The translations under genes and the position numbers were made by a program. The notes under the pieces are model-generated. The model ran no database searches, was not told the DNA's origin, and saw nothing but the letters and a program-made list of their open reading frames with translations. Positions 6,660-61,387 of a DNA stretch of 64,000 nucleotides are shown here, one piece after another; position 1 is the stretch's first letter; each line of letters opens with the position of its first letter. This DNA comes from Pseudomonadota bacterium (GTDB lineage: Bacteria > Pseudomonadota > Gammaproteobacteria > Burkholderiales > Burkholderiaceae_C), in assembly GCA_023390985.1 (NCBI GenBank), contig JAEWBU010000171.1:9708-73707 (forward strand), in the 5' to 3' direction.

Positions 6660-6701
6660 GACCCGCAGAGAGTGACAGGCCGGCAGCACGCTCCATAGAA
6701 T
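6660..6701 (+). promoter_or_regulatory. GACCCGCAG-box promoter, copy 1
   Basis: GACCCGCAG-AGA-GTGACA-N18-TAGAAT. Confidence 0.65.
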
Positions 6702-6744
6702 CGCCCCCGTCTGGCCAAAGGCCGGCAGCTGCCTTTACGACAGC

Positions 6745-6795
6745 CATCAACACCCACCCGGGGACCACATCCCCGGTTGCCGGGACGTGGTTCCC
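6745..6795 (+). promoter_or_regulatory. Conserved structured 5' leader, copy 1
   Basis: CATCAAC, then stem CCGGGGA/TCCCCGG with alternative pairing GGGACCAC/GTGGTTCCC, then GGAG RBS. Confidence 0.6.
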
Positions 6796-6817
6796 TCCCT
6801 CCCTGGAGATTCCACGC

Positions 6818-8386: not shown

Positions 8387-9343
8387 TCACGGACTCGCCT
8401 GTAGCGGGAGCCGTTCAGCTTCGTTCCCCTCAATCCAGCGTTTGCGCCGTACCGTGACGGTAGGCCCCGCCGCCTTCTGCGGTTGAGCGTTGCTGGACGG
8501 CGGCTTTCTAGGGGGATCGGGTGCGGCGCTCTGCTGATTGCGTTTCAGCAGAGGTTCCCGCTCTCTGCGGGCCAGCTGCCGCTGAGTGACAACTGCCTGA
8601 ACGGCGACGCCGTACCGCGCCGCGAAGTCTATAGGGGATGAGTCAGTTCGTTCCAAGGCCTCCAGCAGCTGGCTGCGCTGCACCGGATTCAAGGGCTTCC
8701 CCTTTCGAAGGAGCTTGAGCCAAGGCGCTATCGAAACCGGATCCTCGAGCAGTTCGCGCGCACTCGCGGCTTCGGCCTCGGTGACATGGCCTTCGACCTG
8801 ACCAACCAGGTTGTACCGCGGTGCCCCGGCGACCTGAGCCTCCAGGTATGCGCGACGTCGCCGGAGAGCGCTGCCGGCTGCTTTGATTGAATTCTTCGAG
8901 AACTCTGGGTACAGCTCCGCAAGTACGGCTTTAGCGGTGTCGGCCGTCATTGGGCGAGGTGGCCTTGCGCCGAACGACTCCGGAAATCGGCGGGTGAGTT
9001 CTTCCACTGTCAGATGCAGCGCTCGCGCGCTCTCGACGGCTATCCGACCTTGTGCCCGCGCCTCCATCTCCGGCGAAACCTGGCCCACAACGTTGCCGTC
9101 GAGGTCGTGCAACGGCGCCCCCTGCCGCACTAGTGCTAGACGGTGAGCACTGCGCGCGAAGTGCTTTACGGCACGGTTTACGGAGGCGGCGGTGTACTCG
9201 GGGCAAAGCCTCACTTGCAAGGCGCGACCCACTTCGGCCTGCAGCAGCTTGGGGGGCTTTGCCTGGAACACGGGGAACATGCTCGCGAGCTCCTGAGGCT
9301 TCAGGATCTTCGGACCTGAGTTGCGGTCGTTCGTCATCGTCAT
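8387..9343 (-). CDS. Protein with two tandem ProQ/FinO-like RNA-binding domains
   Basis: Two repeats: FPVFQAKPPKLL..SVNRAVKHFARS..GAPLHDLDGNVVGQVS and FPESFGARPPRPM..SIKAAGSALRRRRAYLEAQVAGAPRYNLVGQVEGHVT. Confidence 0.7.
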   Translation of the reverse strand: MTMTNDRNSGPKILKPQELASMFPVFQAKPPKLLQAEVGRALQVRLCPEYTAASVNRAVKHFARSAHRLALVRQGAPLHDLDGNVVGQVSPEMEARAQGRIAVESARALHLTVEELTRRFPESFGARPPRPMTADTAKAVLAELYPEFSKNSIKAAGSALRRRRAYLEAQVAGAPRYNLVGQVEGHVTEAEAASARELLEDPVSIAPWLKLLRKGKPLNPVQRSQLLEALERTDSSPIDFAARYGVAVQAVVTQRQLARREREPLLKRNQQSAAPDPPRKPPSSNAQPQKAAGPTVTVRRKRWIEGNEAERLPLQASP

Positions 9344-9389
9344 TACATTGATCGCGTCGGGAGCAGCTCGATGGGCTCGCTGATCGGCA

Positions 9390-9731
9390 TTAGGAACTCC
9401 GGCCGGTGCGCGCAGCCCCCGCGGTGCCCGGCGCCGCTCGGTAGGCGTCGTGCTGCGCCTGCAGTTCCGGCCGCGTGCTGCAGGGGAATGGCCAAGTCGG
9501 GTGGGGGACCTTCGCAGGTTGCGCTGCGCCGACTTGTTGCGGCTTCGGCGGACGAGGGGGCAGCGTGGATGCGCTGGGTGCCGGAAAGCAGGAGAGATAA
9601 GCGTCGTGCCAAGCCGCGGCCGCCGAGCTCCCCTGCCCCAGTACATCGTGCCCAGCGCGCACGTCCCAGCCATGAGCGGTCTTCGTGGCCGTCGCGGCGG
9701 GGTGCAGCAGCTGAATCTTCGCCTTGAACAT
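9390..9731 (-). CDS. Hypothetical protein
   Basis: Start overlaps the stop of the upstream gene (TGATG coupling). Confidence 0.5.
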   Translation of the reverse strand: MFKAKIQLLHPAATATKTAHGWDVRAGHDVLGQGSSAAAAWHDAYLSCFPAPSASTLPPRPPKPQQVGAAQPAKVPHPTWPFPCSTRPELQAQHDAYRAAPGTAGAARTGRSS

Positions 9732-10618
9732 CAGAGCAGCGTCCCCTGCGCTGAACCGAGCCCGTCATAGCTCGCTCGCACCGTGCCTTCGCTGAGCGTG
9801 AGGCGGCGGTACTTGTCCAGCTCGCACAGGCAATTCTGGATGTCCATGGCGACCAGCTGACGTTCGTCCCAGATCTCGGTCACGCGCGGCCGCAGCAAGT
9901 CAATGAGCGCGCGCAGCTCGAGCTCGAACTGGACCTGGCTGACGGCCTTGTCCTTGGGCCGCCCGCACAGGCGGTTGATCCCGCGCGCGCTGCCCGGCCC
10001 CACGGGCGCCCAAGTCTCGCGATCAGGCCAGTCTTCCCCTGCTCGCAGGTGCGAGATGTCGGCGACCATCTGGCCAGCCAGGAAGCTGCCGATCCCGTCC
10101 AGAGCGGTGAGGCGGGCCCAGGTAGCGCGCATCGTGGGCTGGTAGATGTCGCCGGCGGCGGCAAGTGCGAGAACCTGCTGCGCGCGGCGCAGCACTGTGG
10201 CGATCTTGGCTTCGCCCGGCGCGCCGGGCACGACGTAGGCCCCCGTAAACACCTTGTGCCCGCCACCAGCGCGCACCTGCAGGCGCCGCTCGGCGTGGAC
10301 CAGGTGCTCCAGTGCAAAGGGCTCGCCCAACGTCACGGCCATGAGCGAGTCGGGCCAGTTGACCATGCGCGCAAGGCAAGCCGCCACCAGCGCGGTGATC
10401 GGGTCAGCGTCAGGCGTGTACCAGCGCTGCAGCAGCGCAACACTCACTCGGTCGTCCATCCTGCGCACGTTGCACCAGCGGTAGTCCCGCAGCAGCGGGT
10501 CGTCGGTCCACGGCTTCGGCTGACCGGCCTCCTTCGCGCGGCGCACGGACTCGCGCTCCCGCATCCAGTGCTCCAGGATGTCCAGCTGCTCGGGATCGAA
10601 GTATGGCGAGGTGCTCAT
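9731..10618 (-). CDS. 5-hmdU DNA kinase helical-domain / aGPT-Pplase1-like protein
   Basis: ERESVRRAKEAGQPKPWTDDPLLRDYRWCNVRRMDDRVS, GIGSFLAGQMVAD, GPGSARGINRL and DIQNCLCELDKY are the family signature. Confidence 0.8.
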   Translation of the reverse strand: MSTSPYFDPEQLDILEHWMRERESVRRAKEAGQPKPWTDDPLLRDYRWCNVRRMDDRVSVALLQRWYTPDADPITALVAACLARMVNWPDSLMAVTLGEPFALEHLVHAERRLQVRAGGGHKVFTGAYVVPGAPGEAKIATVLRRAQQVLALAAAGDIYQPTMRATWARLTALDGIGSFLAGQMVADISHLRAGEDWPDRETWAPVGPGSARGINRLCGRPKDKAVSQVQFELELRALIDLLRPRVTEIWDERQLVAMDIQNCLCELDKYRRLTLSEGTVRASYDGLGSAQGTLL

Positions 10619-10634
10619 GGGCCGCGACGCCCCT

Positions 10635-11900: not shown

Positions 11901-11902
11901 GT

Positions 11903-12529: not shown

Positions 12530-12721
12530 CCTCCTGTATGCCTAGAGCTTGCCTGAGGTCGGGTGGGATTCAAGGCGGCGAGCCTCCCCCAAGTTTCATC
12601 GCGCGCGTTTCCTTCCAGCCTGCGCCAAACCTCCGAAATCGGCATTTGCCGCCCCGCTGGGAAGCGGACACGCCTTCCAAAATAGGGCAACGGGGATTCA
12701 AGTCCCGCATGGAGTACCTGA

Positions 12722-13339: not shown

Positions 13340-13456
13340 CCAAGCGCTGAATCGCGCGCCAAACGCCGAAAAACCGGGTTTGTCGCGCGATGGTCCGGGC
13401 AGGACCGGCTCCACACTGAGGTTTCTCGATGAGACCGCCGTGGCCGGAGCCACACA

Positions 13457-15528: not shown

Positions 15529-15569
15529 GACCCGCAAGAGTTGACGCCGAAGCCGCGGTCCGCTGAAAT
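15529..15569 (+). promoter_or_regulatory. GACCCGCAG-box promoter, copy 2
   Basis: GACCCGCAA-GAG-TTGACG-N17-TGAAAT. Confidence 0.65.
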
Positions 15570-20143: not shown

Positions 20144-20184
20144 GACCCGCAGCGCTGGTGCACCGGGAACTGCGAGCGCAAAAT
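20144..20184 (+). promoter_or_regulatory. GACCCGCAG-box promoter, copy 3
   Basis: GACCCGCAG-CGC-TGGTGC-N17-CAAAAT. Confidence 0.55.
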
Positions 20185-20231: not shown

Positions 20232-20288
20232 CATCAACATCCCCTTGCCGGGCGCCTATGTCGCCCGCTGGGCGCTCTGGTGCTTCCG
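20232..20288 (+). promoter_or_regulatory. Conserved structured 5' leader, copy 3
   Basis: CATCAAC, stem CGGGCG/CGCCCG, alternative downstream GGTGCTTCCG. Confidence 0.5.
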
Positions 20289-20310
20289 CGAGGATCTACC
20301 GGAGAATTCC

Positions 20311-20787
20311 ATGAATCATCCCCAGATCGCCAGAGCGGCGAGGCTGGACACCTCCGCGCTCGGCTCCATGCCGGCGCGCCTGGAGGCAAACACCGATCAG
20401 GAACGCGCACCCATCACCTTCGGCTGGTGGGCCCAGACCACGTGCGAGCGTGTGTCCAAGCACTTCCACCTGGAGACGCTGTACCGGCTCGATCGTGTGC
20501 AGCACGGCTCCCAGGCGATGCTCGTGCCCAGCCAGTTCTATGGCATGGGCGAAGCCGAGGCGCGCCAGTACCTGGCGCCCAGGCAGGCTGCCCTGCTTCC
20601 CAAGCTGCCCACCGGCTATCGCTGGATCGGGCCGCAACTGATCGAGAACGTCCCGGGCCTGCCGCGCACGGTGGCCGGCGCGTTCCCCGAAAACCTGCTG
20701 TCGCCGGCGGCTCGCCAGCGCCTGACTACCGCCAGGAACATCGCGGCCGCGGTGCTGCGCCGTCGTGGCGCACCGGCCTTGGCCTGA
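20311..20787 (+). CDS. Hypothetical protein
   Basis: GGAG RBS before ATG 20311. Confidence 0.7.
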   Translation: MNHPQIARAARLDTSALGSMPARLEANTDQERAPITFGWWAQTTCERVSKHFHLETLYRLDRVQHGSQAMLVPSQFYGMGEAEARQYLAPRQAALLPKLPTGYRWIGPQLIENVPGLPRTVAGAFPENLLSPAARQRLTTARNIAAAVLRRRGAPALA

Positions 20788-26529: not shown

Positions 26530-26570
26530 GACCCGCAGGAGTGGCGGCGCGCGGCTGTCACCGTGAAAAT
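26530..26570 (+). promoter_or_regulatory. GACCCGCAG-box promoter, copy 4
   Basis: GACCCGCAG-GAG-TGGCGG-N17-GAAAAT. Confidence 0.55.
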
Positions 26571-27413: not shown

Positions 27414-27448
27414 AAGGCCTCAACCGGTTCCGGTTGGGGCCTTTTTTT
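27414..27448 (+). terminator. Intrinsic terminator
   Basis: AAGGCCTCAACCGG-tt-CCGGTTGGGGCCTT followed by a T run. Confidence 0.8.
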
Positions 27449-27463: not shown

Positions 27464-27504
27464 GACCCGCAGGAGGTGCGCCGCCCGCGCAGAGCGGCTA
27501 GATT
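27464..27504 (+). promoter_or_regulatory. GACCCGCAG-box promoter, copy 5
   Basis: GACCCGCAG-GAG-GTGCGC-N17-TAGATT. Confidence 0.6.
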
Positions 27505-27548: not shown

Positions 27549-27603
27549 CATCACCAACCCTTCCGGGTAGCCACGCTGCCCCGGAAGGGGTGCTGGCTTC
27601 CCG
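27549..27603 (+). promoter_or_regulatory. Conserved structured 5' leader, copy 4
   Basis: CCCTTCCGGG/CCCGGAAGGG stem; CGGGTAGCCA alternatively pairs with TGGCTTCCCG. Confidence 0.6.
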
Positions 27604-27620
27604 TCTTTCGACGAGGAACC

Positions 27621-28085
27621 ATGAACCACAACCCCGCAAGCGCCGACTCGGCCGATGACGATGCGGTAATCGCACGCGCCCTATCCATCTTGGAGGCGCG
27701 GATGCGCAGGGCCAACTTGAGCGCGCCCAATGCGGCAAAGGACTACTGCCGCCTCCAGCTGGGCGGACTGGACCACGAAGTGTTCGGCGTCATCTTTCTC
27801 GACGCGCAGAACCGGCTGATCGAGTTCCGGCGCATGTTCGCCGGCACGCTCACGCAAACGAGCGTGTACCCGCGCGAGATCGTGAAGGCCGCGCTGAAAG
27901 TCAATGCCGCCACGGTCGTCCTGACGCACAACCACCCGAGCGGCACCGTGATGCCCTCGCGCGCCGACCAGGCGCTCACGCAGACGTTGCGATCGGCGCT
28001 TGCGCTGGTGGACGTGAGGGTGATGGACCACATCGTGGTCTCCGCATCCGATACCTACTCGTTCGCCGAACGGGGGCTGCTCTGA
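27621..28085 (+). CDS. radC: RadC-family JAB domain protein
   Basis: HEVFGVIFLD, GTLTQTSVYPRE, HNHPSG..PSRAD, DHIVV. Confidence 0.92.
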   Translation: MNHNPASADSADDDAVIARALSILEARMRRANLSAPNAAKDYCRLQLGGLDHEVFGVIFLDAQNRLIEFRRMFAGTLTQTSVYPREIVKAALKVNAATVVLTHNHPSGTVMPSRADQALTQTLRSALALVDVRVMDHIVVSASDTYSFAERGLL

Positions 28086-30728: not shown

Positions 30729-30856
30729 GGGCTAAGTTGGTAGTGCCTGAAGGCGATCCAAGGGCTTCGGACCGCCTCCGCGCGCGATGCGGTCGCACCC
30801 GCACACCAGCCCCGCAGAACTTGCAGACGCAACGGCTCACCATACGATGGTGTGCA

Positions 30857-43256: not shown

Positions 43257-43297
43257 GACCCGCAGGAATTGCGGCAGCGCGGGGGCCGATCCAGAAT
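43257..43297 (+). promoter_or_regulatory. GACCCGCAG-box promoter, copy 6
   Basis: GACCCGCAG-GAA-TTGCGG-N17-CAGAAT. Confidence 0.65.
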
Positions 43298-43347: not shown

Positions 43348-43404
43348 CATCAACCACCCCAACGGGATTCCACGAGTCCCGGTAGGGGTTAGCCGTGGAA
43401 TCCC
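43348..43404 (+). promoter_or_regulatory. Conserved structured 5' leader, copy 6
   Basis: CGGGA/TCCCG stem versus perfect 11-bp GGGATTCCACG/CGTGGAATCCC, followed by T6. Confidence 0.65.
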
Positions 43405-43420
43405 TTTTTTCGGAGATTCC

Positions 43421-45217
43421 ATGGAACAGATCGAAAGCGCGTCCGGGGACGGCACGCCCGTTCGGATCGCCTGCAGCCGAGTGAGCCGGAAGGCGAACTA
43501 CCGCCGCAAGTTCTCTCAGCAAAGCCTCAAGGACCTCGCGGAGGACTTCAAGCGCAACGGCCAGCTGCAGGAGATCCTGATCCGGCCTCTGCACGGCACC
43601 TTCGAACCGCCTGTGGACGGCATCCTTCAGGCCAACGGCCAGCAGGATTTCGAGTTGGTCGTCGGAGGTCGCCGCATCCTCGCGTGCGAGATCAACGGCG
43701 GGCCCGACGCCTTCATCAACGCGAAGGTTCGGATCATGACCGAGGCCGAGGCCATCGCGGCCATGCTCTCGGAGAACATGAACCGCGAGAACCCTTCCGT
43801 GATCGAGGAAGCCGAGGCCGCCGCCCGCATGCTGGGCGTCTGCAATGGCGACCGCGACGAAGCCGCTGGCCGCCTCGGCTGGGAACGCAAGCTGTTCGAC
43901 AAGCGCCTTGCGCTGATGAACGCCACGCAGTCCGTGCGCGACGCCTACATCGAGGGACACCTGGATGTGGGCCACGTCGAGATCCTGGCCGCCTTCCGCA
44001 AGGAGGTGCAGGACAACATCATCGGCAAGCTGCGCCAGACCAACAACTGGCCGACCATCGTGCAGCTCAAGGCGATGGCCGAGCAGGCGCTGTGCAACCT
44101 GGAAGCCGCGATCTTCGATCGCACCGAATGCCAGGGCTGCCAGCACAACTCGGGCTACCAGCAGCAGATGTTCGAGCAGTCGTTCGAAGGCAGCAAGTGC
44201 GCCAACAAGGCCTGCTACGAGTCCAAGACCGAAGGTGAACTGGAAAAGCGCCGTGCTGCGCTGACCAGCGACTACCAGGTGGTGCGCATCGTTCGCCCGG
44301 GCGAGAACCACACCCTGATCCAGCTGCGCGCCGAAGACGACAAGTACGTCCAAGGCGTCGGCCCCGAGCAGGCGCAGGCCTGTCGCACCTGCGGCGACTT
44401 CGGCGCCTGCGTGTCCGCCGTGCCCGACAAGTTGGGCAAGACGTTCAAGGACATCTGCTTCAACAAGACGTGCCATGACGAGAAGGTCAAGGCCTTCAAG
44501 AAGCAGCAGCAGCAGGCCGCGGCCCCCGAGCAGCAGGACACCGGCGGCGACACCAACGCCCGGTCCACGAACGCGAAGTCGAGCAATCGCACTTCCGCGC
44601 CGGCGGCCAAGCAAAGCTCCTCGCAGGCGTCCGCGCCCAAGGCGAGCCCGGCCACGTTGCGCAACGCGATCAAGGAGTACCGCGAGCACATCTGGCGCAA
44701 GGTGTTCCAGCGCGCCGCGCTGAAGCTGACCGTCATGCCCTCGCGGGCGCTCCTGGCCGCGGTGCTGCTGTATCGCTCGTCGTACATCGACGGTTCGGCC
44801 GCAGCGGACGCGATCAACAAGGCTCTGGGAACCGACCTGTCGCGGATCAGCGGCAACCCCACGGAGCGGCTCCTGAGCGAACTGTTGGGATTCGACCAGC
44901 AGAGGCTGGCCACGGTGTTCAACCACCTGGCTGCCAGCATCACGAAGGAGATGCCCATCAACGACGTCGTAGGCCTGCTCAAGGCCCTGGGCGTCCGGAT
45001 CGAGGACTACTGGAAGGTGAACGAGACCTTCTTCGACATCCTGACCAAGACCGAGATCGATGCCGTGTGCAAGGAGATCGGTCTGGACAAGGCTGCCGGC
45101 AAGACCTACACGAGCCTGTTCAACGGGCCCAAGAAGGACTTCATGGCGGCCATGCTCAAGGTCGACGGCTTCGCCTACGAAGGCGCGGTCCCGAAGATGA
45201 TGCGCTGGGACAGCTGA
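43421..45217 (+). CDS. PRTRC system ParB-family protein
   Basis: LVVGGRRILA, SENMNRE, Cys clusters (CQGC, CANKAC, CRTC, CFNKTC); heads the PRTRC cluster. Confidence 0.88.
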   Translation: MEQIESASGDGTPVRIACSRVSRKANYRRKFSQQSLKDLAEDFKRNGQLQEILIRPLHGTFEPPVDGILQANGQQDFELVVGGRRILACEINGGPDAFINAKVRIMTEAEAIAAMLSENMNRENPSVIEEAEAAARMLGVCNGDRDEAAGRLGWERKLFDKRLALMNATQSVRDAYIEGHLDVGHVEILAAFRKEVQDNIIGKLRQTNNWPTIVQLKAMAEQALCNLEAAIFDRTECQGCQHNSGYQQQMFEQSFEGSKCANKACYESKTEGELEKRRAALTSDYQVVRIVRPGENHTLIQLRAEDDKYVQGVGPEQAQACRTCGDFGACVSAVPDKLGKTFKDICFNKTCHDEKVKAFKKQQQQAAAPEQQDTGGDTNARSTNAKSSNRTSAPAAKQSSSQASAPKASPATLRNAIKEYREHIWRKVFQRAALKLTVMPSRALLAAVLLYRSSYIDGSAAADAINKALGTDLSRISGNPTERLLSELLGFDQQRLATVFNHLAASITKEMPINDVVGLLKALGVRIEDYWKVNETFFDILTKTEIDAVCKEIGLDKAAGKTYTSLFNGPKKDFMAAMLKVDGFAYEGAVPKMMRWDS

Positions 45218-46306: not shown

Positions 46307-46342
46307 AGCCCCGTCACCGCCTTGGTGACGGGGCTTTTTTTT
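46307..46342 (+). terminator. Intrinsic terminator
   Basis: AGCCCCGTCACC-gcctt-GGTGACGGGGCT followed by a T run. Confidence 0.85.
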
Positions 46343-46343
46343 G

Positions 46344-46384
46344 GACCCGCGAGAGTTGACCCCCATCACCTGCGCGCAAACAAT
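46344..46384 (+). promoter_or_regulatory. GACCCGCAG-box promoter, copy 7
   Basis: GACCCGCGA-GAG-TTGACC-N17-AACAAT, immediately after the terminator. Confidence 0.65.
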
Positions 46385-46442
46385 CAGGCTGTTTTCGCAT
46401 CTTGCGGACTCGCGCGGGGCTCTTCGCCACCGCGCCTTTCTA

Positions 46443-46488
46443 AAACCCGCGCGGGGCCTAGGTCCCGCGAGGGAGTCCGGGTCCTCGC
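46443..46488 (+). promoter_or_regulatory. Conserved structured 5' leader, copy 7
   Basis: GCGGGGCC/GGTCCCGC stem versus downstream GGGTCCTCGC. Confidence 0.5.
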
Positions 46489-46503
46489 TCTTAGGAGAAC
46501 CCG

Positions 46504-47601
46504 ATGACACACATCCAGGCAGCGGTGACGCAACCGGCTTGGCCGGGCTGTTTCCTGCTTCCCGCATTCGACGAGCAAGTGCCTGTCGCGATTGGCTCGG
46601 AACACGTCCGCGCGCGCATCCTGGCACGGCTCGCCAAGATCTCCGCTGAAGAGGGCGTGCCGCTGCCGGCGGGCGCGGACTTCAGCTCCGTCGAGAAGGT
46701 CGTAGCCGCGCAGTGGCAGCAGCATGTAGATGCCGCCTTCGGCGACCGGCCGATGGTTTCGGGCAAGCCAACTGTCGTTGTTCGCGACGACTGCATCGGC
46801 TTCCGCATCGACGCTCTGTCGAATCTCAACGTTTTCCAGCTCAAGCCCGTCATCACGGCGCTGGAGAAGAGCTGCAGCGGCCTCGGCTGGTTCGTGCTGT
46901 CGGTGCTGGACACCTGCCGGAGCCACGGGCACGAGTTCTACGACATGTGCCTTGCTGCCTGGGTGCTGGATCCGCACCACGGCGAGCTAGACAGCTTCAC
47001 CGATGAAGCCTACGTCCGCTTCCTGATCAACCACGAGGGGCTAGACCTCTCGGAGGATGACATCACGCCCGAGGTGATCGAGCAGATCAAGCCGGACCAC
47101 ATGTTCTGGCCGAGCGATGTGCTGGAAACCGTTGACGGTCATGCGCACTTGCTCGGCCGGGGCCGCGCCCCGAAGCCGCTGAGTGCTCGTGGTGCAACGA
47201 AGTGGCTCGCCGATCATGCGCGAGATCCCTTCGCACCCGTCGTGCAGCTGGCAACGAAGCTCAAGGCGGAGTTCACGGCCGACAAGGACCGGGCGTTCGT
47301 CTGGAGTCGATCACTTACCGACCAAGACGAGGACGTTCAGCCGATCGGGGCCGCGGCATTCCTCGCATGGGATGACCCGGGCCTGCTACTCGAGCTGGTC
47401 CAGCACCACGAAGAGTACGCCTACAACGGCGGCGGCGGCGCGGAGGAATACGCCCGAAGCCTGGTGGTTGGCATTGACCTGGAAGACGACGCGGACCTGC
47501 GCAAGTTGGTGCGGGACGCGAAGCGCTATTTCAAACGATGGGGGCTGATCAATCAGCTCCTGACTCACTTTCCGACGTGGGAAGGGAACGACGAGACATG
47601 A
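46504..47601 (+). CDS. PRTRC system protein F
   Basis: LEKSCSGLGWFVL motif; position between proteins C and B. Confidence 0.7.
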   Translation: MTHIQAAVTQPAWPGCFLLPAFDEQVPVAIGSEHVRARILARLAKISAEEGVPLPAGADFSSVEKVVAAQWQQHVDAAFGDRPMVSGKPTVVVRDDCIGFRIDALSNLNVFQLKPVITALEKSCSGLGWFVLSVLDTCRSHGHEFYDMCLAAWVLDPHHGELDSFTDEAYVRFLINHEGLDLSEDDITPEVIEQIKPDHMFWPSDVLETVDGHAHLLGRGRAPKPLSARGATKWLADHARDPFAPVVQLATKLKAEFTADKDRAFVWSRSLTDQDEDVQPIGAAAFLAWDDPGLLLELVQHHEEYAYNGGGGAEEYARSLVVGIDLEDDADLRKLVRDAKRYFKRWGLINQLLTHFPTWEGNDET

Positions 47602-51755: not shown

Positions 51756-52685
51756 TCAGGCGCTGGTCGCACCGGCCGGCGCGACCTCGCCAGCAGGCGC
51801 CGCCGCGGCAACGGAGTGGGCGGGGTCGTCCGCGGCGGGCTTCTTGCGCGCGCTGCCCGTCTTGCGGGCCGGCGCGCCGGCGGCGGCTGCAGAGGCGGCT
51901 GCAGCGTCGGAAAGCATCTGGGACGCGGCATCACCGGTCATCGGGGTGTCGCCGTCCTGCGTAGCCTCGTGCTGGGATTCCTGGGAGAACTTCTCGATCT
52001 CCTTGCCCTGCTCGGCCAGCAGCTGGTCGCGTTGCGGATCGGCCTGGCCCTTGCTGTGCTGCTCGCGCTGGAGGCGCTGTGCTTCGCGGTACAGCTTGAA
52101 GACCTCCTGCTCCATGGTCGCCCGGAAGGCGCGCAGAGCCTTCTTGCAGGTCCATTCCACCTGCGCGCGTTGCTGCGAATCCAGCAGACCCCACAGGTTG
52201 GCGCTGCCGGAGAGGATGTAGACGCGATCCATCAGCATCAGCATTTCCAGGTACACCCGCGCCTGGGCCGCGATGATCGGCACGTCCACCTTGAGGGTCT
52301 GCGGATACAGGCTCAGGGCCTCGTCGCGGTGCTTGCCGGCCTGCTCCAGGATCTTCTTCAGACGCTGGTCCCAGTTGCCGATCAGCGTCTGGATGTTCTG
52401 CAGCTTCGCGGTGCCGAGGGTGGCGAAGCGATCCAGAAGTTCGGTGTTGAAGCCGTGCCAGGAGCGGTACTGGTACTCCATGTACAGCTGCTTGGACAGG
52501 TAGGCGAAGTCCTTGCGGAAGAAGCGGATCGCCACGGGCGAGGCGAGCGTCTGGTCTTCCAGGACGAGGACGGGGCTTTGAAACGTGTGGACGAACTTCT
52601 CGTCGAACAGGTTCTGGATCGCGCTGACGTGCCGCGCACGGCGCTCCGCCAGGGCCGTGTCGACGGCGGGGGGATTGGTGGTCAT
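51756..52685 (-). CDS. AcaB/DUF1845-like transcriptional regulator candidate
   Basis: YPQTLKVDVPIIAAQARVYLEMLMLMDRVY..LWGLLDSQQR resembles, from memory, the IncC AcaB helical domain; same divergent position relative to an AAA/ssb/DUF3150 operon. Confidence 0.55.
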   Translation of the reverse strand: MTTNPPAVDTALAERRARHVSAIQNLFDEKFVHTFQSPVLVLEDQTLASPVAIRFFRKDFAYLSKQLYMEYQYRSWHGFNTELLDRFATLGTAKLQNIQTLIGNWDQRLKKILEQAGKHRDEALSLYPQTLKVDVPIIAAQARVYLEMLMLMDRVYILSGSANLWGLLDSQQRAQVEWTCKKALRAFRATMEQEVFKLYREAQRLQREQHSKGQADPQRDQLLAEQGKEIEKFSQESQHEATQDGDTPMTGDAASQMLSDAAAASAAAAGAPARKTGSARKKPAADDPAHSVAAAAPAGEVAPAGATSA

Positions 52686-52853
52686 GTCGGGACTCCTGAA
52701 CAGAAAAGACTGCCCAGTGAATCTAGGCTCGGGGCTGGCCTACCCTGCGCGCGCCAAACTGCTATTTCGGGCGATTGGCGCGCGATGTGAGCCTCCGGCA
52801 CGCAAGGGACGGCGGCCGGCGAATGGGACGCGATGCCTCGCTGGGGCAAGTTG

Positions 52854-52895
52854 GACCCGCATCCGTTGACCGCCGCGCCAAGGCGATTTCATAAT
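52854..52895 (+). promoter_or_regulatory. GACCCGCAG-box promoter, copy 8
   Basis: GACCCGCAT-CCG-TTGACC-N18-CATAAT. Confidence 0.7.
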
Positions 52896-53411: not shown

Positions 53412-53606
53412 ACGAGACTCGGGAAGGCCTGTGGCCTTCCCGCGGTCCCATCTCTCTTCCCACTTCCACCCTTCGCGCTCCACCGCCTTCAACGGCCATT
53501 GCCAAGTCGCCCACCACAGGGCATTTCGCAATGTCCGGTGTTCAACACCGCGACCGTCTGCCTCAGTGCAGACATTCACCGCCGGGCGCTTCCTGCGCCC
53601 GCGCAT

Positions 53607-53652
53607 CATCAACCCGACCGGGGCTCCACGCCCCGGAAGGGTTGTGGGCTCC
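53607..53652 (+). promoter_or_regulatory. Conserved structured 5' leader, copy 9
   Basis: CATCAAC, CCGGGGC/GCCCCGG stem versus GGGGCTCCAC/GTGGGCTCC. Confidence 0.6.
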
Positions 53653-53712
53653 AGTCGAAAGCTGGAGGCCTAACGATGCAAGTCATCACCGCCTGCTGGC
53701 CGGAGAAATCCG

Positions 53713-57089: not shown

Positions 57090-57093
57090 TCGC

Positions 57094-57558: not shown

Positions 57559-57581
57559 GCGCAGCTCAAAGGGAGACGCGA

Positions 57582-57812
57582 GTGTGCGTTGAACGACTGA
57601 CGCAAGCCGTCAAGAAATTCCAGGACAGCACGGGAGAGGAAGCCCTGCTGGTGGTACTGCACGACGACGAGGACCAGATCATTGGTCTTCACCGGATCGG
57701 ATTCGAGGTGGGCGCAGGCCTGCTCGTTGACGGCCGGCCCGCCGGCTATGAGTTCTACCGCCAGGTGCATGACTTCCACGCCCTGCAAGAGCCGCCCGCG
57801 CTGCTGCACTGA
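57582..57812 (+). CDS. Small hypothetical protein
   Basis: GGGAG RBS, GTG start. Confidence 0.55.
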   Translation: MCVERLTQAVKKFQDSTGEEALLVVLHDDEDQIIGLHRIGFEVGAGLLVDGRPAGYEFYRQVHDFHALQEPPALLH

Positions 57813-57829
57813 GCCCCGAAGGGGGTTCA

Positions 57830-57870
57830 GACCCGCAGCAGTTGCGGACTGGCCGGACCAATCTGAGAAT
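57830..57870 (+). promoter_or_regulatory. GACCCGCAG-box promoter, copy 9
   Basis: GACCCGCAG-CAG-TTGCGG-N17-GAGAAT. Confidence 0.65.
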
Positions 57871-58201
57871 TTCCCACGAGACACCTGAAAGGGTGCTTTG
57901 TGGAAAGCGCCTTCCCAGTGGGCAGAGGCGCTTTCTGCAGTGCATTTCCCCCGCTCTTCGGAGCGAATGCGGAGCTGGAACACCGCATGCCGCCTCACCG
58001 GCGGTCACTCCAGCCTTCAACCACGGCACCACCCGCACGCCATCTGCGTGAGCGCGGCTGCCAGCCAACTTCCTATTCGGCGCGACAGCCAGTCGTCGCC
58101 GGCTTCCTCTCGGGATCGGCCAATGCGTCTCCTCCCGTCGGGTGGGTGCATTGGCGGGTCTCGCGTGTCTTGACCCATTTCCAATCACTTAGGAGAGTCC
58201 C

Positions 58202-61126
58202 ATGAATATCGAAAGTGCGGCGACGCTCGAAGCCCTGGAGCCCCAGGCGCTGTCGACGTACGTCTTCCGCGAAAAGTACGCTGCGCCGGGGGAGCAGACG
58301 CACCTCGACCTGCATCGACGCGTCGCCAAGGCCCTGGGCCGCGACAGCGCGCAGGAACAGCGCTTCCTGTCCACGCTGGTCAACGGTTTCATCCCTGGTG
58401 GTCGCATCAACGCGTCAGCCGGCTTGGACCGTAAGACCACGCTCGTCAACTGCTTCGTCCAGCCTCTGGCCGATTGCATGACGGGCAACCTCCACGGTAT
58501 CCCCGGCATCATGGATGCTCTGGGCGAGGCCGCTGAAACCATGCGCCAAGGCGGCGGTGTGGGTTACGACTTCAGCCCGCTGCGCCCCTCGCGTGCCCGC
58601 GTCAAGGGCACGGAATCGGAAGCCTCCGGGCCTGTGAGCTACATGCGTGTCTTCGACCGCATGTGCGACACGGTGGAGTCGGCCGGCTCGCGCCGCGGCG
58701 CCCAGATGGGCGTGCTGCGCGTCGACCACCCTGACATCGAGTCCTTCGTGGACGCCAAGAAGGGACCGGACTTCACTGCCATGGGCCTGCCGCAGGCGAT
58801 GGCGGACCAGATGATGCGGATGATCCGCACCAACGACAAGTTCGGCGCGGCCGTTCGCAAGGCGTTCGCGACGCTGAGCAACTTCAACATCTCGGTCGGC
58901 GTGACGGACAAGTTCATGCAGGCCGTGGTCGACGATGCCCAGTTCGACCTGGTGCACGTCGCCGAACCCAGCTTCCCGGCCCTCGGCCAGGTTGCCGATG
59001 CCGACGGCGTGACCCGTTTCATCTACCGCACGGTGCGCGCGCGCGACCTGTGGACCAGGATCCTGCGCAACGCGTACGAGACCGGCGACCCGGGCATCGT
59101 GTTCCTGGACACGATCAATCGTCTGAACAATCTGAGGTACTGCGAAGTCATTGCAGCTACCAACCCGTGCGGGGAGCAGCCGCTTTCGCCGTATGGCTGC
59201 TGCGATGTGGGCCACGCCAGTTTGGTGCGGTTCGTGCGCAATCCTTTCACGCCGGCAGCGCGCTTCGACTGGAGCGCGTTCAAGCAGGTGGTGGCTGGGG
59301 GCGTGGAGCTGCTGGACCGCGTTCTGGACGTGACCAAGTGGCCCTTGCCGCAACAGCAAGCCGAGGCCGAAGCCAAGCGCCGCATCGGGGCGGGGTTCAC
59401 CGGCCTGGGCAGCGCGATGGCGATGCTGGGCCTGCGCTACGGCGCGGTGGAGTCGGCGGCGTTCGCCGCCGAGGTCACTCGCACGATGCGCGACACCGCG
59501 TACCGCAAGTCGGTGGAGCTCGCGCGCGAGTTGGGCGCCTTCCCGCTGTTCGACGCGGACAAGTATCTGGAGGAAGGAACCTTCGCCTCCACGCTTCCCG
59601 AGGACATCAAGGAGGACATCCGGCGGTACGGAATGCGAAACAGCCACACGCTGTCGCTCGCTCCGGTTGGCACCGGGTCATTGGCCTTCGGAGACAACTG
59701 CAGCTCCGGCGTCGAGCCGATCTTCGACCTGAATGCGTTCCGCAACGTGCGGACTGGCAACGGTGACGAGAAGAAGCTGTGGAGCGCTGAGGAGTACGCG
59801 CTGCGCGTGCTCAAGCTGGTCCGCGGCGAAGGAGCCACGGACGATGCGCTGGTGACGGCGCAGGAGCTTTCGGTTGACGATCATCTGCGCGTGCTCAACG
59901 CGGTCGCGCCGTACATCGACGCCGCCGTGAGCAAAACGGTGAACGCGCCGCGCGATTACCCGTTCGAGGCCTTCCAGGAGACCTACATGAACGCCTGGCG
60001 CAGCGGCCTGAAAGGGATCACCATCTACAGGCCCAACGACATGCTGGGCTCGATTTTGGTTTCGGCCGAGGAGCAACGCCAGAAAGAACTGCTCGCCGCC
60101 GGCGAGACCGCCTCCAACGATGACCTGGACCGCCGGGTGACGCTGAAGGACGCGCCGAACCTGCTCACGCAGATGAAGTGGCCGAGCCGGCCCGACGTGG
60201 CCGCCGAGGGCAAGACCTACCCGGTCAAGCACCGCAACGGGAACTTCGCCGTGGTGGTCAACCACTGGGTCAACGGAAGCCAGCATCCGCTGGAGGTGTA
60301 CATCGCAGGAAACGAAGCTCCGCGCGGACTCGGGGCCATCGCCAAGAGCCTGAGCGTGGACATGCGCACCGACGACGCAGCGTTCCTGGAGATGAAGCTG
60401 GATTCGCTGCTCAATACCAAGGGCGAGGACGCGTTCGAGATGCGTGACCCGGCCACGGGCCAAACGGTGCTGATGCCGTCCCTGACGGCGGGCTTCGCGA
60501 AGGTGGTGAAGCACCGTCTTGCCGAGTTGGGGGTGCTGGGCGATCAGGCCAGCTCCCCGATGATCGATGCGCTGTTCTCGCGACGCGAGCCGAAGACCGG
60601 CGCCGACGGCGCGATCGGCTGGCACGTGGACATCAACAACCCGGTGACGGGCGACGACTTCCTGCTGCACACCAAGGAGATAAAGCTGCCCGATGGGTCG
60701 ATCCGCCCCTACTCGGTGTGGCTCTCGGGCCACTACCCGAAGGTGCTTGACGGCCTGATGAAGGTGCTGTCTATCGACCTGCGCATCAGCGACCCGATGT
60801 GGGCCGTGATGAAGCTGCGCAAGCTACTGAGCTTCGGCGAGGTGCGCGGCGACTTCATGGCACCGGTCCCCGGCGAGCAGCGCCAGGCCAACTACCCGAG
60901 CACGGTGGCCTACATGGCTGCGGTGCTCCTGGCCCGGATGGAAAAGCTCGGGCTGGTGCGTGGTGAGGCCGAAGCGGCGGCATCCGACGAGGGCGCTCCG
61001 CTGCGCGGGGGCAACCTGCTGGCCGGCTCCGGAAAGCAGTGCCCCAGCTGCCACGCCATGACCTTGCACAAGGTCAGCGGCTGCGAAGAGTGCAGTAGCT
61101 GCGGGTACACCGGCAGCTGCGGCTGA
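58202..61126 (+). CDS. nrdJ: Class II (adenosylcobalamin-dependent) ribonucleotide reductase with C-terminal Zn-ribbon
   Basis: GFIPGGRI, NCFV, GGGVGYDFS, RRGAQM, TNPCGEQPL, APVGT, KGITIYRP, terminal CPSC..CSSCGYTGSCG. Confidence 0.92.
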   Translation: MNIESAATLEALEPQALSTYVFREKYAAPGEQTHLDLHRRVAKALGRDSAQEQRFLSTLVNGFIPGGRINASAGLDRKTTLVNCFVQPLADCMTGNLHGIPGIMDALGEAAETMRQGGGVGYDFSPLRPSRARVKGTESEASGPVSYMRVFDRMCDTVESAGSRRGAQMGVLRVDHPDIESFVDAKKGPDFTAMGLPQAMADQMMRMIRTNDKFGAAVRKAFATLSNFNISVGVTDKFMQAVVDDAQFDLVHVAEPSFPALGQVADADGVTRFIYRTVRARDLWTRILRNAYETGDPGIVFLDTINRLNNLRYCEVIAATNPCGEQPLSPYGCCDVGHASLVRFVRNPFTPAARFDWSAFKQVVAGGVELLDRVLDVTKWPLPQQQAEAEAKRRIGAGFTGLGSAMAMLGLRYGAVESAAFAAEVTRTMRDTAYRKSVELARELGAFPLFDADKYLEEGTFASTLPEDIKEDIRRYGMRNSHTLSLAPVGTGSLAFGDNCSSGVEPIFDLNAFRNVRTGNGDEKKLWSAEEYALRVLKLVRGEGATDDALVTAQELSVDDHLRVLNAVAPYIDAAVSKTVNAPRDYPFEAFQETYMNAWRSGLKGITIYRPNDMLGSILVSAEEQRQKELLAAGETASNDDLDRRVTLKDAPNLLTQMKWPSRPDVAAEGKTYPVKHRNGNFAVVVNHWVNGSQHPLEVYIAGNEAPRGLGAIAKSLSVDMRTDDAAFLEMKLDSLLNTKGEDAFEMRDPATGQTVLMPSLTAGFAKVVKHRLAELGVLGDQASSPMIDALFSRREPKTGADGAIGWHVDINNPVTGDDFLLHTKEIKLPDGSIRPYSVWLSGHYPKVLDGLMKVLSIDLRISDPMWAVMKLRKLLSFGEVRGDFMAPVPGEQRQANYPSTVAYMAAVLLARMEKLGLVRGEAEAAASDEGAPLRGGNLLAGSGKQCPSCHAMTLHKVSGCEECSSCGYTGSCG

Positions 61127-61346
61127 TGTGAACCAGGTGCGTTGCTTCGGCGCGCACCAACAGGCTCCCTCCGAGAGGAGGGGCCTGCCTGGAGGGTTGT
61201 GCATCAGCTCTCCAGACAGGTCGCCAGCGCCCCCACGGGGCGCCTGCATCGAATCGGCGCGCCCCTCGCACATGTCGGCCTCGGCTGCCCTTTCAGGCCC
61301 ATCCGATCGCGGGCAAGGCTGCGGGCGTGTGTTGGCAAGAAGGCCA

Positions 61347-61387
61347 GACCCTCAGCAGTTGCCAGCTGCAGCAGCCCGGAATAGAGT
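61347..61387 (+). promoter_or_regulatory. GACCCGCAG-box promoter, copy 10
   Basis: GACCCTCAG-CAG-TTGCCA-N17-TAGAGT. Confidence 0.6.

Follow-up and report, generated by a model that had tools for sequence, protein, structure and literature searches.

A nine-base box in front of about twenty sigma-70-type promoters on a conjugative element

Promoters and leaders in the window

The window, a stretch of 64,000 nucleotides on contig C224, carries operons with DNA-modification, RadC, PRTRC and nrdJ genes, and these are preceded by promoters that share a nine-base box of the GACCCGCAG type, termed box A here, which lies exactly 3 nt upstream of the -35 element. Ten such sites and a variant at 30809 had been predicted from the sequence; all eleven were found at their coordinates on the plus strand, and all are intergenic according to crude, GC3-based gene calls. 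The predicted architecture was also recovered, as the order of box A, 3 nt, a -35-like hexamer, a spacer and a -10-like hexamer is the same at all eleven sites. The spacer comprises 17 nt in nine of the eleven and 18 nt at 6660 and 52854, while the variant can be read with 16 or 17 nt, and the distance from the start of the box to the -10 hexamer is 35-36 nt. Box A is asymmetric and occurs in a single orientation and at a single distance from the -35 element, in which TTG is kept. A twelfth site lies on the same contig just outside the window (C224:74737, which corresponds to window coordinate 65030).

6660..6701, plus strand: box A promoter, GACCCGCAG-aga-GTGACA-18-TAGAAT; followed by a 279-aa ORF from 6818
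15529..15569, plus strand: box A promoter, GACCCGCAA-gag-TTGACG-17-TGAAAT; operon 15694-18117 with a DpdA-like gene
20144..20184, plus strand: box A promoter, GACCCGCAG-cgc-TGGTGC-17-CAAAAT; operon with a PAPS-reductase/DndC-like gene
26530..26570, plus strand: box A promoter, GACCCGCAG-gag-TGGCGG-17-GAAAAT; followed by a 206-aa ORF (26766-27386)
about 27416..27448, plus strand: intrinsic-terminator-like hairpin and T7, read from the sequence, directly before the box at 27464
27464..27504, plus strand: box A promoter, GACCCGCAG-gag-GTGCGC-17-TAGATT; followed by RadC and a DndC-like 626-aa protein
30809..30848, plus strand: variant box promoter, GCCCCGCAG-aac-TTGCAG-16/17-TACGAT (or ACGATG), PWM score 18.9 bits; followed by a membrane-like ORF and an XRE HTH ORF (31183-31653)
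43257..43297, plus strand: box A promoter, GACCCGCAG-gaa-TTGCGG-17-CAGAAT; followed by PRTRC ParB, E and C
46307..46343, plus strand: intrinsic-terminator-like hairpin (13 pairs, 46307-46335) and T8, directly before the box at 46344
46344..46384, plus strand: box A promoter, GACCCGCGA-gag-TTGACC-17-AACAAT; followed by PRTRC F, B, A and ThiF
52854..52895, plus strand: box A promoter, GACCCGCAT-ccg-TTGACC-18-CATAAT; divergent from the acaB-like gene, followed by a long conserved leader, a MoxR-type AAA ATPase and an SSB-like gene
57830..57870, plus strand: box A promoter, GACCCGCAG-cag-TTGCGG-17-GAGAAT; followed by nrdJ
61347..61387, plus strand: box A promoter, GACCCTCAG-cag-TTGCCA-17-TAGAGT; followed by a DUF3150 gene and a CobT/VWA-like gene

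The two terminators that had been proposed in front of the boxes at 27464 and 46344 are thus both present. Most box promoters lead into a conserved structured leader (model R1), in which the Shine-Dalgarno sequence is sequestered and for which Rfam contains no match:

6745..6816, plus strand: R1 leader, ending at the start codon
15618..15695, plus strand: R1 5' leader, conserved and structured
20235..20313, plus strand: R1 5' leader, conserved and structured
27550..27624, plus strand: R1 5' leader, conserved and structured
43349..43424, plus strand: R1 5' leader, conserved and structured
46438..46506, plus strand: R1 5' leader, conserved and structured
53605..53676, plus strand: R1 leader, internal to the operon driven from 52854
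61437..61512, plus strand: R1 5' leader, best-scoring copy (67.7 bits)

Specificity and conservation of box A

Taken by itself, the degenerate 9-mer is no commoner than chance predicts: it matches 14 times in the window, and shuffled sequence yields 12.6 +/- 3.6 matches. Four of its matches had not been part of the original prediction; those at 34342 and, on the minus strand, at 46023 and 52291 lie within genes by our own calls, and the one at 809 lies within a Pfam-supported ORF that these calls do not contain. The two plus-strand matches of this group, 809 and 34342, were inspected and are not followed by a -35/-10 arrangement. A different result is obtained with the composite pattern GACCCKC-N5-KKG-N21-22-ANADT, which has nine matches in the window against an expectation of 0.01 +/- 0.10 (100 shuffles) and 16 in the whole 4.6-Mb genome, all of them on three contigs (ten on C224, three on C186 and three on C335). 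The reversed pattern, used as control, has none in the same 4.6 Mb, and among 40 related genomes 13 contain one match each and 27 none. A PWM trained on 18 sites finds 19 matches of at least 18 bits in the genome; 17 of these belong to the training set, C335 contributes a new one (32928), and the remaining one, on C231, is not followed by an A-N-A-[ATG]-T -10 pattern. On the three contigs, the non-coding DNA (34 kb) contains the 8-mer GACCCGCA 20 times and the coding DNA (127 kb) 6 times. The boxes mark a probably co-regulated promoter set that is specific to the element, as had been proposed. Two features that the search pattern did not impose are a purine directly before the box in all 18 sites and an A at box position 8 in 17 of the 18. 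We regard it as almost certain that box A is a real promoter element specific to this element.

About 20 box promoters sit on one conjugative element with a TrfA-based replicon. Besides the operons of the window they include those of a giant methylase-helicase on C186 and of ParM-like and integrase/recombinase-like genes on C335. The element had been called a plasmid, which agrees with the closed plasmids among its relatives, whereas on one contig with the motif, chromosome-like genes are linked to an integrase gene. Box A is missing from the transfer region (C224 77-97 kb), and none of the transfer genes follows a box; there is likewise none in front of the flhDC-like genes or at the trfA and parAB promoters.

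In the related elements of Hydrogenophaga, Ramlibacter, Caenimonas and Polaromonas, the position of the box is kept at orthologous promoters and its sequence is lineage-specific. The 9 nt located 3 nt upstream of the -35 are GGTCGCCAT in Caenimonas and Polaromonas, GGCCCCRGT in two Ramlibacter, GRACCGCAT in R. albus, and GGTCCGCAT and GGCCTGWWT in Hydrogenophaga, instead of the GACCCGCAG of the window. When a sigma-70 scorer that is blind to box A was run upstream of 36 leader copies, in 25 of them the best -35 hexamer fell 72-84 nt ahead of the leader. Lineage-specific boxes at a constant position fit an element-encoded DNA-binding factor that co-evolves with its sites. A point against the proposed regulators is that the box sequence does not track the overall identity of AcaB, FlhC or FlhD; Caenimonas and Polaromonas both use GGTCGCCAT, although the identity of their AcaB proteins is only 45%, which is not higher than in other pairs. 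The single RNA run that could be found consists of low-depth contigs of a relative and gives no transcript starts.

Candidate regulators and interpretation of box A

The regulators named in the original prediction are encoded on the element, namely the AcaB-family protein in the window and an FlhD/FlhC-like pair just outside it (C224 77160-78213). The acaB-like gene is preceded by a second type of element, motif B, and not by box A.

51756..52685, minus strand: gene of an AcaB-family regulator, 309 aa, with predicted tandem strand-helix-helix repeats
52720..52778, minus strand: motif B promoter of the acaB-like gene, CCAATCGCCCGAAATAGCAGTTTGG, with TAGATT 53 nt from the motif start
12625..12683, plus strand: motif B promoter, CCAAACCTCCGAAATCGGCATTTG ... 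CAAAAT, before a 205-aa ORF (12722-13339)
13359..13417, plus strand: motif B promoter, CCAAACGCCGAAAAACCGGGTTTG ... CACACT, before a DUF1173 gene (13457-14866)

The profile of the AcaB-like protein matches the AcaB structure 6N8B (E = 6e-4; next match E = 0.15), and its model, which consists of two strand-helix-helix repeats, has AcaB 6N8A as the sole significant Foldseek match (E = 4.7e-6, TM 0.76). The FlhC-like profile matches E. coli FlhC (2AVU_E, E = 2.4e-5), the three best fold matches of its model are FlhC chains, and the four-cysteine site is kept together with the FlhC fold. The pair adjoins a MobH-type relaxase gene and a TraD gene, and a cI/SetR-like gene (C224 75979-76653) is divergent from it. 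Motif B is a palindrome of about 26 bp (CCAAAC..CGAAA..GTTTG) that is found upstream of the relaxase-like gene, at three type IV secretion promoters and upstream of the acaB-like gene; its search pattern has seven matches in the genome, all on C224. It matches the conserved positions A1, A2, A9-A11 and A13 of the FlhDC half-site given as AAYGSSNNAAATAGCG in section 2.2 of PMC9962212, and it is also similar to the AcaCD boxes in Table 1 of PMC4207636. Due to this resemblance, the FlhDC-like complex, which had been named as a possible binder of box A and is indeed encoded on the contig, would more likely bind motif B.

Box A can thus be described as a cis-element 3 bp before the -35 of at least 18 to 21 sigma-70-type promoters, and that it serves as docking site of an element-encoded, co-activating factor has in our view about an even chance of being right. 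The individual parts of this interpretation differ in strength: that box A is the site of an element-encoded protein is highly probable, and that this protein activates rather than represses is moderately favored. Judged from the sequence comparison, the factor would be plasmid-borne and co-evolve with its sites. If transcription starts about 7 nt after the -10 hexamer, box A would span about -47 to -39. This is the location at which class-II-type activators act and at which the alpha-CTD or sigma region 4 of RNA polymerase makes contacts.

The opposite sign of regulation must be considered, in which box A is the operator of an element-encoded global repressor and the promoters fire upon entry and are silenced as the repressor accumulates. 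Such an overshoot or establishment logic is known from the IncP-1 KorA/KorB and IncW networks, and the genes for DNA modification, RadC, SSB-like, PRTRC and C186 methylase-helicase proteins are of the kinds needed early after entry. Three of the five box promoters between 42.5 and 62 kb match 9-10 of the 12 sigma-70 consensus positions, and a strict sigma-70 scan of 42500-62000 returned three promoter-like sites that are all box promoters (46356, 52866 and 61359, with TTGACC-17-AACAAT, TTGACC-18-CATAAT and TTGCCA-17-TAGAGT, respectively). As several of the promoters are good without assistance, repression suits them as well as activation; the -35 hexamers TGGTGC, GTGCGC and TGGCGG at others are poor, however. 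Operators of repressors are as a rule palindromes with a looser phasing, whereas box A is asymmetric with one orientation and one distance from the -35. The variant box before the XRE HTH gene would suit autoregulation, but the XRE family has 2-6 copies per related genome on several contigs and is therefore not specific to the element. The retained TTG also speaks for a repressor, as the SetCD-dependent promoters described in PMC4344509 have no recognizable -35. Altogether, we consider repression unlikely, though of appreciable weight.

That the FlhD/FlhC-like complex itself occupies box A, with motif B belonging to another factor, appears improbable. It would agree with the location beside the -35, as for the AcaCD and SetCD boxes (PMC4207636, PMC4344509), with regulated genes that are partly of the same types as the AcaCD/SetCD targets of unknown function and include the integrase-like and ParM-like genes on C335, and with the faint similarity of CAGGAG here to the CAGAG/CAGCG ends of AcaCD boxes next to the -35 (PMC4207636, Table 1). 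On the other hand, the transfer region is devoid of box A, which is a 9-bp asymmetric sequence, and it is motif B that has the AcaCD target set of relaxase, type IV secretion and acaB known from PMC8373056 and that fits the FlhDC half-site (PMC9962212) as a palindrome. Quite improbable, too, is an explanation without any dedicated factor, in which box A is a passenger of a duplicated promoter-plus-leader cassette or a UP-like contact of the host polymerase. The constant geometry of box, promoter and leader could reflect common descent of cassettes, but these have no alignable sequence between their motifs, and yet the 9-mer hardly varies within the element. The different 9-mers at the same place within one bacterial family are hard to reconcile with a host polymerase contact and favor a partner that co-evolves, and box A is G/C-rich while UP elements are A/T-rich. 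A private sigma factor, which the original prediction had offered as an option, would, with box A as its -35-type element, give a conserved upstream element confined to one replicon, but the box starts 35-36 nt before the -10, which is judged too distant for a sigma -35 to -10 pair. The TTG -35, the 17-nt spacer and the nAnAAT -10 are of the sigma-70 type, and for this reason such a factor is extremely doubtful; Pfam scans of the 71 ORFs of the window and of 92 ORFs from the rest of C224, C186 and C335 contained no sigma-factor family.

Returning to an element-encoded co-activator, the AcaB-like tandem ribbon-helix-helix protein is the leading, still tentative, candidate for the binder of box A. 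Other candidates are the XRE protein behind the variant box and the 205-aa ORF driven by motif B, which has a weak winged-helix-like model and is present in four of five relatives. In the proposed cascade, the cI/SetR-like repressor would keep the divergent FlhD/FlhC-like pair off; once made, the complex would bind motif B at the relaxase, type IV secretion and acaB-like promoters, and the AcaB-family protein would then bind the asymmetric 9-bp box A and turn on a second tier. This tier would comprise the DNA-modification, RadC, PRTRC, MoxR/VWA/DUF3150, SSB-like, nrdJ and primase-like genes as well as the ParM-like and recombinase-like genes on C335. If this is true, one regulator would switch the maintenance, DNA-modification and PRTRC operons on together.

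Comparison with known systems

In the IncP-1 KorB/KorA system, a TrfA replicon has many promoters with one operator, in some cases a few bp before the -35; a ParB-type repressor binds the palindromic KorB operators, which control trfA and partition genes. The element described here shares the TrfA replicon and the common site at many promoters, but its box is asymmetric and is not found at trfA or parAB. The phn island of Delftia sp. Cs1-4, also a Comamonadaceae element, has an FlhC orthologue, a LexA/cI-like repressor, a PRTRC cluster, type IV secretion genes, a primase and DinG and UvrD helicases, and its account in PMC3318190 is at the level of gene content, with no shared promoter box or leader described. 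With the FlhD4C2 class II flagellar promoters (PMC9962212), the likeness concerns motif B and the four-cysteine site and fold of the FlhC-like protein, not box A, and no flagellar genes are involved.

Closest are AcaCD of IncC/IncA and SetCD of SXT/R391, where many promoters have a shared box directly upstream of the -35 (PMC4207636, PMC4344509), a parallel that had been drawn correctly. Common to these systems are also the FlhD/FlhC-like pair beside MobH-type relaxase and TraD genes, the AcaB homologue, and the cI/SetR-like gene divergent from the activator genes. Differences are the short, asymmetric box A, which is unlike the published AcaCD boxes, the retained TTG, the TrfA-based replicon and the Comamonadaceae-type betaproteobacterial hosts; since the transfer genes and acaB carry the separate motif B, there are two promoter classes here, not one. 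AcaB of IncC, a ribbon-helix-helix-like activator itself switched on by AcaCD, is described in PMC8373056 at the single promoter Pacr1, where its action feeds back positively on acaDC and completes a loop, and not regulon-wide, whereas its homologue is proposed here for about 20 promoters, with no box before the flhDC-like genes. The protein nevertheless matches AcaB by profile and fold, and its gene, behind an FlhDC-type box and divergent from a regulated operon, parallels the arrangement of acaB-vcrx087 behind AcaCD boxes (PMC8373056).

Box A promoters and the element that carries them

Box A, a 9-bp promoter box 3 nt upstream of the -35 element, had been predicted at eleven sites of the window between 6660 and 61347, including a variant at 30809, and all of these could be confirmed at their coordinates, on the plus strand and, by the GC3-based gene calls made in this analysis, in intergenic DNA. 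The common layout was likewise borne out: box A is separated by 3 nt from a TTG-type hexamer, which is followed after 17 nt (nine of the eleven sites) or 18 nt (6660 and 52854) by an nAnAAT-type hexamer, and the terminators preceding 27464 and 46344 are both present. When 18 sites are aligned, the gap between box A and the -35 hexamer is 3 nt throughout and only one orientation occurs; a purine lies directly 5' of the box in 18/18 sites and position 8 is A in 17/18, and the search pattern fixed neither of these positions. The 9-bp box is asymmetric, and only 7 of the 18 sites have a -35 hexamer (TTGCGG, TTGCGA or TTGCAG) with which it forms a partial inverted repeat. Four matches to the degenerate 9-mer that were left out of the first listing (809, 34342, and 46023 and 52291 on the minus strand) all fall within genes or a Pfam-supported ORF. 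Tandem 9-bp repeats also occur in coding DNA, GAGCCGCAG four times at 56665-56700 (-) and GACCAGCAG three times at 63331-63357 (+); they are one mismatch from box A, explain several one-mismatch matches and sit within ORFs without the promoter layout of the box sites.

Specificity to the element holds for the promoter as a whole but not for the bare 9-mer. Taken alone, the degenerate 9-mer is not enriched in the window (14 matches versus 12.6 +/- 3.6 in shuffles), and it was rejected as a signal: the genome holds 179 exact copies, of which 7 lie on C224, the contig containing the window, where about 4 are expected from the genome density. The composite GACCCKC-N5-KKG-N21-22-ANADT, in contrast, matches nine times in the window where 0.01 matches are expected (100 shuffles), and its 16 matches across the whole genome are confined to three contigs, with ten on C224 (all on the plus strand) and three each on C186 and C335; the reversed pattern, run genome-wide as a control, has none. 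Among 40 related genomes, 13 contain one composite match each and 27 contain none. A PWM built from 18 training sites gives 19 genome hits at 18 bits or more, namely 17 training sites, a new site on C335 and a lone hit on another contig, which does not fit the composite pattern's -10. The 8-mer GACCCGCA is mostly non-coding on C224, C186 and C335 taken together, occurring 20 times in 34 kb of non-coding versus 6 times in 127 kb of coding DNA.

C224, with 97,407 bp, is the longest of the 429 contigs in this fragmented 4.6-Mb assembly, which is about 85% complete; the window covers bases 9708-73707 of C224. Pfam and NCBIfam matches identify the following genes in the window.

Genes of the element in the window
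32961-34597, ParA/ParB
35449-36519, TrfA
43421-49869, full PRTRC cluster
further genes: RadC, nrdJ, SSB-like, MoxR-type AAA ATPase, DUF3150 with CobT/VWA-like
DNA modification: Mom-like, DpdA-like, 5-hmdU kinase, methylase, DndC/PAPS-reductase-like

The DNA-modification genes make up a dense set for a conjugative element (5872-6648, 9731-12529 on the minus strand, 17005-18117, 20792-21859 and 28085-29965); beside the Mom-like, 5-hmdU DNA kinase, DpdA-like and two DndC/PAPS-reductase-like genes it includes an N6/N4 methylase with an Mrr_N domain and a PLD-type nuclease, and several of its genes are positioned behind box A promoters. Past the window, C224 carries a primase-like gene, a divergent cI-like HTH gene and two small ORFs, followed by a MobH-type (TraI_2) relaxase, TraD and a VirB/Trb-type secretion system. 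C186 and C335 also have genes typical of such elements: C186 encodes type IV pilus proteins and a 1690-aa methylase-helicase, and C335 encodes ParM-like, Ku, DUF7007 and integrase-family proteins. At the element edge, window positions 2-1916 hold two-partner secretion fragments (an MBG_2 domain ORF and a POTRA_2 ORF), adjoined by an SRAP (SOS-response-associated peptidase) gene at 1977-2756.

Closed circular plasmids occur among the relatives, and chromosome-like catabolic genes lie beside element genes on C335 and at the start of C224. The integrase-family gene of C335 sits behind a box A promoter. At this locus (L007, C335 12655-13066) two box A promoters stand back to back, 330 bp apart, with the integrase-family gene one way and the ParM-like actin gene the other way; chromosome-like catabolic genes lie some 4 kb off. 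This may reflect an integrative element, or L007 may be a separate island that shares the same regulator.

Structured leaders and lineage-specific boxes

Of the window's eleven box promoters, seven have a conserved leader downstream that ends at the start codon. It consists of CAUCAAC, a hairpin (ACCC..CGGGA-loop-UCCCG..GGG) and a helix GGGUUC/GAACCC, whose GAACCC adjoins a GGAG Shine-Dalgarno sequence; in the window the -35 hexamer lies 73-82 nt upstream. The parB leaders of three lineages have GGAAUC/GAUUCC in place of GGGUUC/GAACCC, a compensatory replacement. In 19 sequences, pairing is found in 86.6% of cells versus 82.5% when shuffled, and none of 500 shuffles reached the observed value; the covariation score is 0.170 versus 0.116 (1/500 shuffles), and no slid register pairs in more than 64% of cells. 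A covariance model of the leader (R1) finds nine copies in the window at E <= 1.4e-4, which are eight training copies and a new one at 57514.

Leader copies in the window, about 70 nt each
6745-6816
15618-15695
20235-20313
27550-27624
43349-43424
46438-46506
53605-53676
57514-57584
61437-61512

Weaker copies follow box promoters on C186, on C335 and in the remainder of C224, and 31 copies at E <= 0.01 were found in 16 related loci. Rfam contains no family that reaches the gathering score in the window, and the leader is unmatched. As its helix would cover the ribosome-binding site, translational control is the likely role of the leader. The element also encodes a 428-aa protein with a ProQ/FinO domain (8387-9673, minus strand), a possible RNA-binding partner of the repeated leaders. 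A further non-coding stretch of about 330 nt (52924-53290, plus strand) lies between the 52854 promoter and a 40-codon ORF and can be aligned in 14 loci from five genera; its hairpin arms vary in step, and GTGCA..TGGGACAC, GCGACGGC, GTCTTnCTCGACG and GTTGC are invariant blocks. It has no Rfam match (a search of 52800-53750 returned a chance-level IRES hit only) and may represent either a large structured RNA or a site that acts at the DNA level.

PLSDB contains no near-identical DNA, only short patches, and relatives were therefore reached through proteins. A profile of the AcaB-like protein, encoded at 51756-52685 (-), retrieved 15 loci from Ramlibacter, Caenimonas, Hydrogenophaga, Polaromonas, Sideroxydans and an unclassified Burkholderiales genome, and the gene order around acaB is conserved in the loci that were fetched. 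Over its whole backbone this element is syntenic with pPBL-H3_B2-1, a closed plasmid of Hydrogenophaga sp. PBL-H3, and the annotation of that plasmid lists 'AcaB family' and 'FlhC family' transcriptional regulators adjoining mobH and traD. Orthologous promoters (PRTRC parB, PRTRC F, DUF3150 and the acaB-divergent operon) keep the architecture, with the box directly 5' of the -35 as in the window, and have a lineage-specific 9-mer. To avoid circularity, sigma-70-like hexamer pairs were scored upstream of 36 leader copies without regard to any box; for 25 of these copies the best -35 hexamer lay 72-84 nt ahead of the leader, and the 9-mer 3 nt upstream of that hexamer was taken as the box of the lineage.

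Lineage-specific boxes
Window, seven promoters: GACCCGCAG
Caenimonas and three Polaromonas: GGTCGCCAT
Ramlibacter MAG: AGCCGCCAT
Two Ramlibacter: GGCCCCRGT
R. albus: GAACCGCAT / GGACCGCAT / GGACGTGAT
Related locus L023: GGTCCGCAT
Hydrogenophaga MAG: GAACCTGGT
pPBL-H3_B2-1: GGCCTGWWT

The box-blind search gave no clear box in L015 and L018, two A/T-richer loci. Because the place of the box is fixed and its sequence lineage-specific within one bacterial family, the comparison of sequences points to an element-encoded, co-evolving factor, and host RNA polymerase is less favoured. Naive 8-mer over-representation in the related loci was dominated by coding bias and gave no signal. As AcaB-less control, the Rhodoferax ferrireducens T118 plasmid (the best TrfA match) proved unsuitable: it lacks the R1 leader, and the protein in the position of AcaB shows hardly any similarity (hhalign E = 0.022, probability 2%). 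DUF3150 also failed as an anchor for AcaB-less relatives, since 965 plasmids match and the close ones are AcaB carriers. One metatranscriptome run contained 16% of the sampled words and yielded only low-depth contigs 90-99% alike; it gave no transcript starts or ends and bears on neither transcription nor habitat.

Motif B and the element's FlhDC-like and AcaB-like proteins

The transfer region (C224 77-97 kb) has no box A hit. Its promoters carry instead a palindromic motif of about 26 bp, motif B, with the form GCGCCAAAC-N2-3-CGAAA-N5-7-GTTTG. The pattern CCAA[AT]C-N2-5-GAAA-N5-10-TT[TG]G has seven matches in the whole genome, every one on C224.

Motif B sites
window 12625-12683 (+)
window 13359-13417 (+)
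window 52720-52778 (-)
C224 78257, outside the window
C224 83419, outside the window
C224 92030, outside the window
C224 93402, outside the window

The six plus-strand sites have a -10-like hexamer at 54-59 from the motif start, or at 55-60 in one case (hand count). They precede a relaxase-like gene, three type IV secretion promoters and the ORFs 12722 and 13457, and the acaB-like gene on the minus strand is also preceded by motif B. The motif agrees with the conserved A1, A2, A9-A11 and A13 of the FlhDC half-site AAYGSSNNAAATAGCG as given in PMC9962212, and it resembles AcaCD boxes such as TAGGTGCCCAAATAGGGCACTTCCAGAG in Table 1 of PMC4207636.

FlhDC-like proteins of the element, if any, had been named as possible binders, and an FlhD/FlhC-like pair lies at C224 77160-78213. 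The FlhC-like protein (77542-78213) has no Pfam or NCBIfam hit as a single sequence. With a profile of eight homologues, E. coli FlhC (2AVU_E) is found at E = 2.4e-5 and 8J56_C with E = 0.022, and the top three Foldseek matches of its model are FlhC chains (1.7e-3 to 2.6e-3; next match 0.49). C173, C176, C192 and C195 are invariant in 8/8 aligned homologues and align with the cysteine region of FlhC, its C-terminal zinc site. The gene is present in 5/5 relatives searched; the 124-aa FlhD-like ORF upstream, which has no family match, and the divergent cI-like gene are each present in 4/5. Complex prediction weakly supports a pairing of the two proteins, at a score of 0.50 (best control 0.02), with contact agreement between runs of at least 88% and a partner pLDDT of at least 68. 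Of 157 solved complexes, 116 reach the mark applied, as do 2 of 215 mismatches, and scores up to 0.60 comprise only 18 of the 157 solved complexes plus both passing mismatches; since structures of FlhDC complexes already exist, likeness to them and not binding may explain the pass.

The protein at 51756-52685 was also correctly recognised as an AcaB homologue. Neither a single-sequence search nor NCBIfam gave a match; the profile of 20 homologues matches AcaB (6N8B and 6N8A) at E = 6e-4, and the hit after these has E = 0.15. The model (pLDDT 75.7) is a single chain with two strand-helix-helix repeats, and its sole significant Foldseek match is AcaB 6n8a_B (E = 4.7e-6, TM 0.76; next, unrelated match 0.39).

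Candidate readers of box A and known systems

An alternative sigma factor, one of the two kinds of regulator originally proposed, is unlikely to read box A, as the promoters have a TTG -35, a 17-18-nt spacer and an nAnAAT -10; a strict sigma-70 scan of 42500-62000 returned three promoter-like sites, each of them a box promoter. Whether a dedicated factor would activate or repress is answered differently by two features: the strict orientation and phasing of box A favour activation, and the fair quality of several box promoters, which match 9-10 of 12 sigma-70 consensus positions, favours repression. An FlhDC-like complex would, to judge from the motifs, fit motif B better than box A.

For box A itself, we infer that the AcaB-like protein is a candidate binder. 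Its position as the one recognisable transcription factor under motif B would make for a cascade of two tiers; an asymmetric site of about 9 bp would suit a single chain with two strand-helix-helix repeats; and AcaB has been reported as an activator (PMC8373056). However, AcaB of IncC has been described at one promoter only, the flhDC-like genes are without box A, and box sequence does not track the overall similarity of AcaB, FlhC or FlhD. Because all lineages are about 33-64% identical to one another, comparing the boxes with AcaB strand residues or with overall identities gave no clear covariation. The XRE protein encoded behind the variant box remains a candidate, but belongs to a multi-copy family in the relatives. 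Another candidate is an ORF of 205 aa that lies under motif B, is present in 4/5 relatives and has a model with weak winged-helix likeness. If the AcaB-like protein is nevertheless the reader, a fuller scheme can be drawn, which as a whole we consider rather improbable. An AcaB-family single-chain tandem ribbon-helix-helix protein, turned on by an FlhDC-type master activator, would act as a promoter-specificity factor at some 20 promoters, where it would recognise an asymmetric 9-bp box around -47 to -39, and the conserved leader RNA covering the Shine-Dalgarno sequence would be a second gate on each operon. The outcome would be a two-tier, two-level switch of establishment and anti-defence genes in a betaproteobacterial conjugative element family.

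The regulation of conjugative elements has been worked out for a few enterobacterial and Vibrio models (IncC, SXT/R391), and for the large Comamonadaceae TrfA/MobH elements with their catabolic, PRTRC and DNA-modification genes it has been described at the level of gene content only. Here two separate promoter classes on one element would define a transfer tier and a maintenance/DNA-modification tier, the little-studied AcaB family becomes a candidate for a much wider role, and a repeated structured leader may contribute translational control. Through the lineage-specific boxes, the co-evolution of a regulator with about 20 sites could be studied in a natural series, and experiments are feasible in Hydrogenophaga sp. 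PBL-H3, a cultured relative with a closed plasmid. Literature searches with the motif string and on PRTRC, promoters and FlhC found no description of box A among the papers listed; those listed for the string GACCCGCAG were unrelated primer or variant uses. The phn island of Delftia, a related element, has been described with FlhC, a LexA-like repressor and PRTRC, and the sections of PMC3318190 dealing with them describe no promoter motif.

The closest known systems are AcaCD and SetCD, which share with this element a common box by the -35, an FlhDC-type activator and an AcaB homologue. AcaCD/SetCD boxes precede transfer operons (relaxase, coupling protein and mating-pair genes), whereas box A precedes none of these. 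Compared by eye with the boxes in Table 1 of PMC4207636 and in the parts of PMC9962212 that present them, box A is also unlike the AcaCD/FlhDC boxes, which are long, partly palindromic and about 19-28 bp. The box promoters differ from alternative-sigma promoters in having -35, -10 and spacing of the sigma-70 type, and asymmetric box A differs from the palindromic operator of KorB-type (ParB family) proteins. It is motif B that has its counterpart in IncC, where AcaCD activates the transfer operons and acaB (PMC8373056), the same target set as found here.
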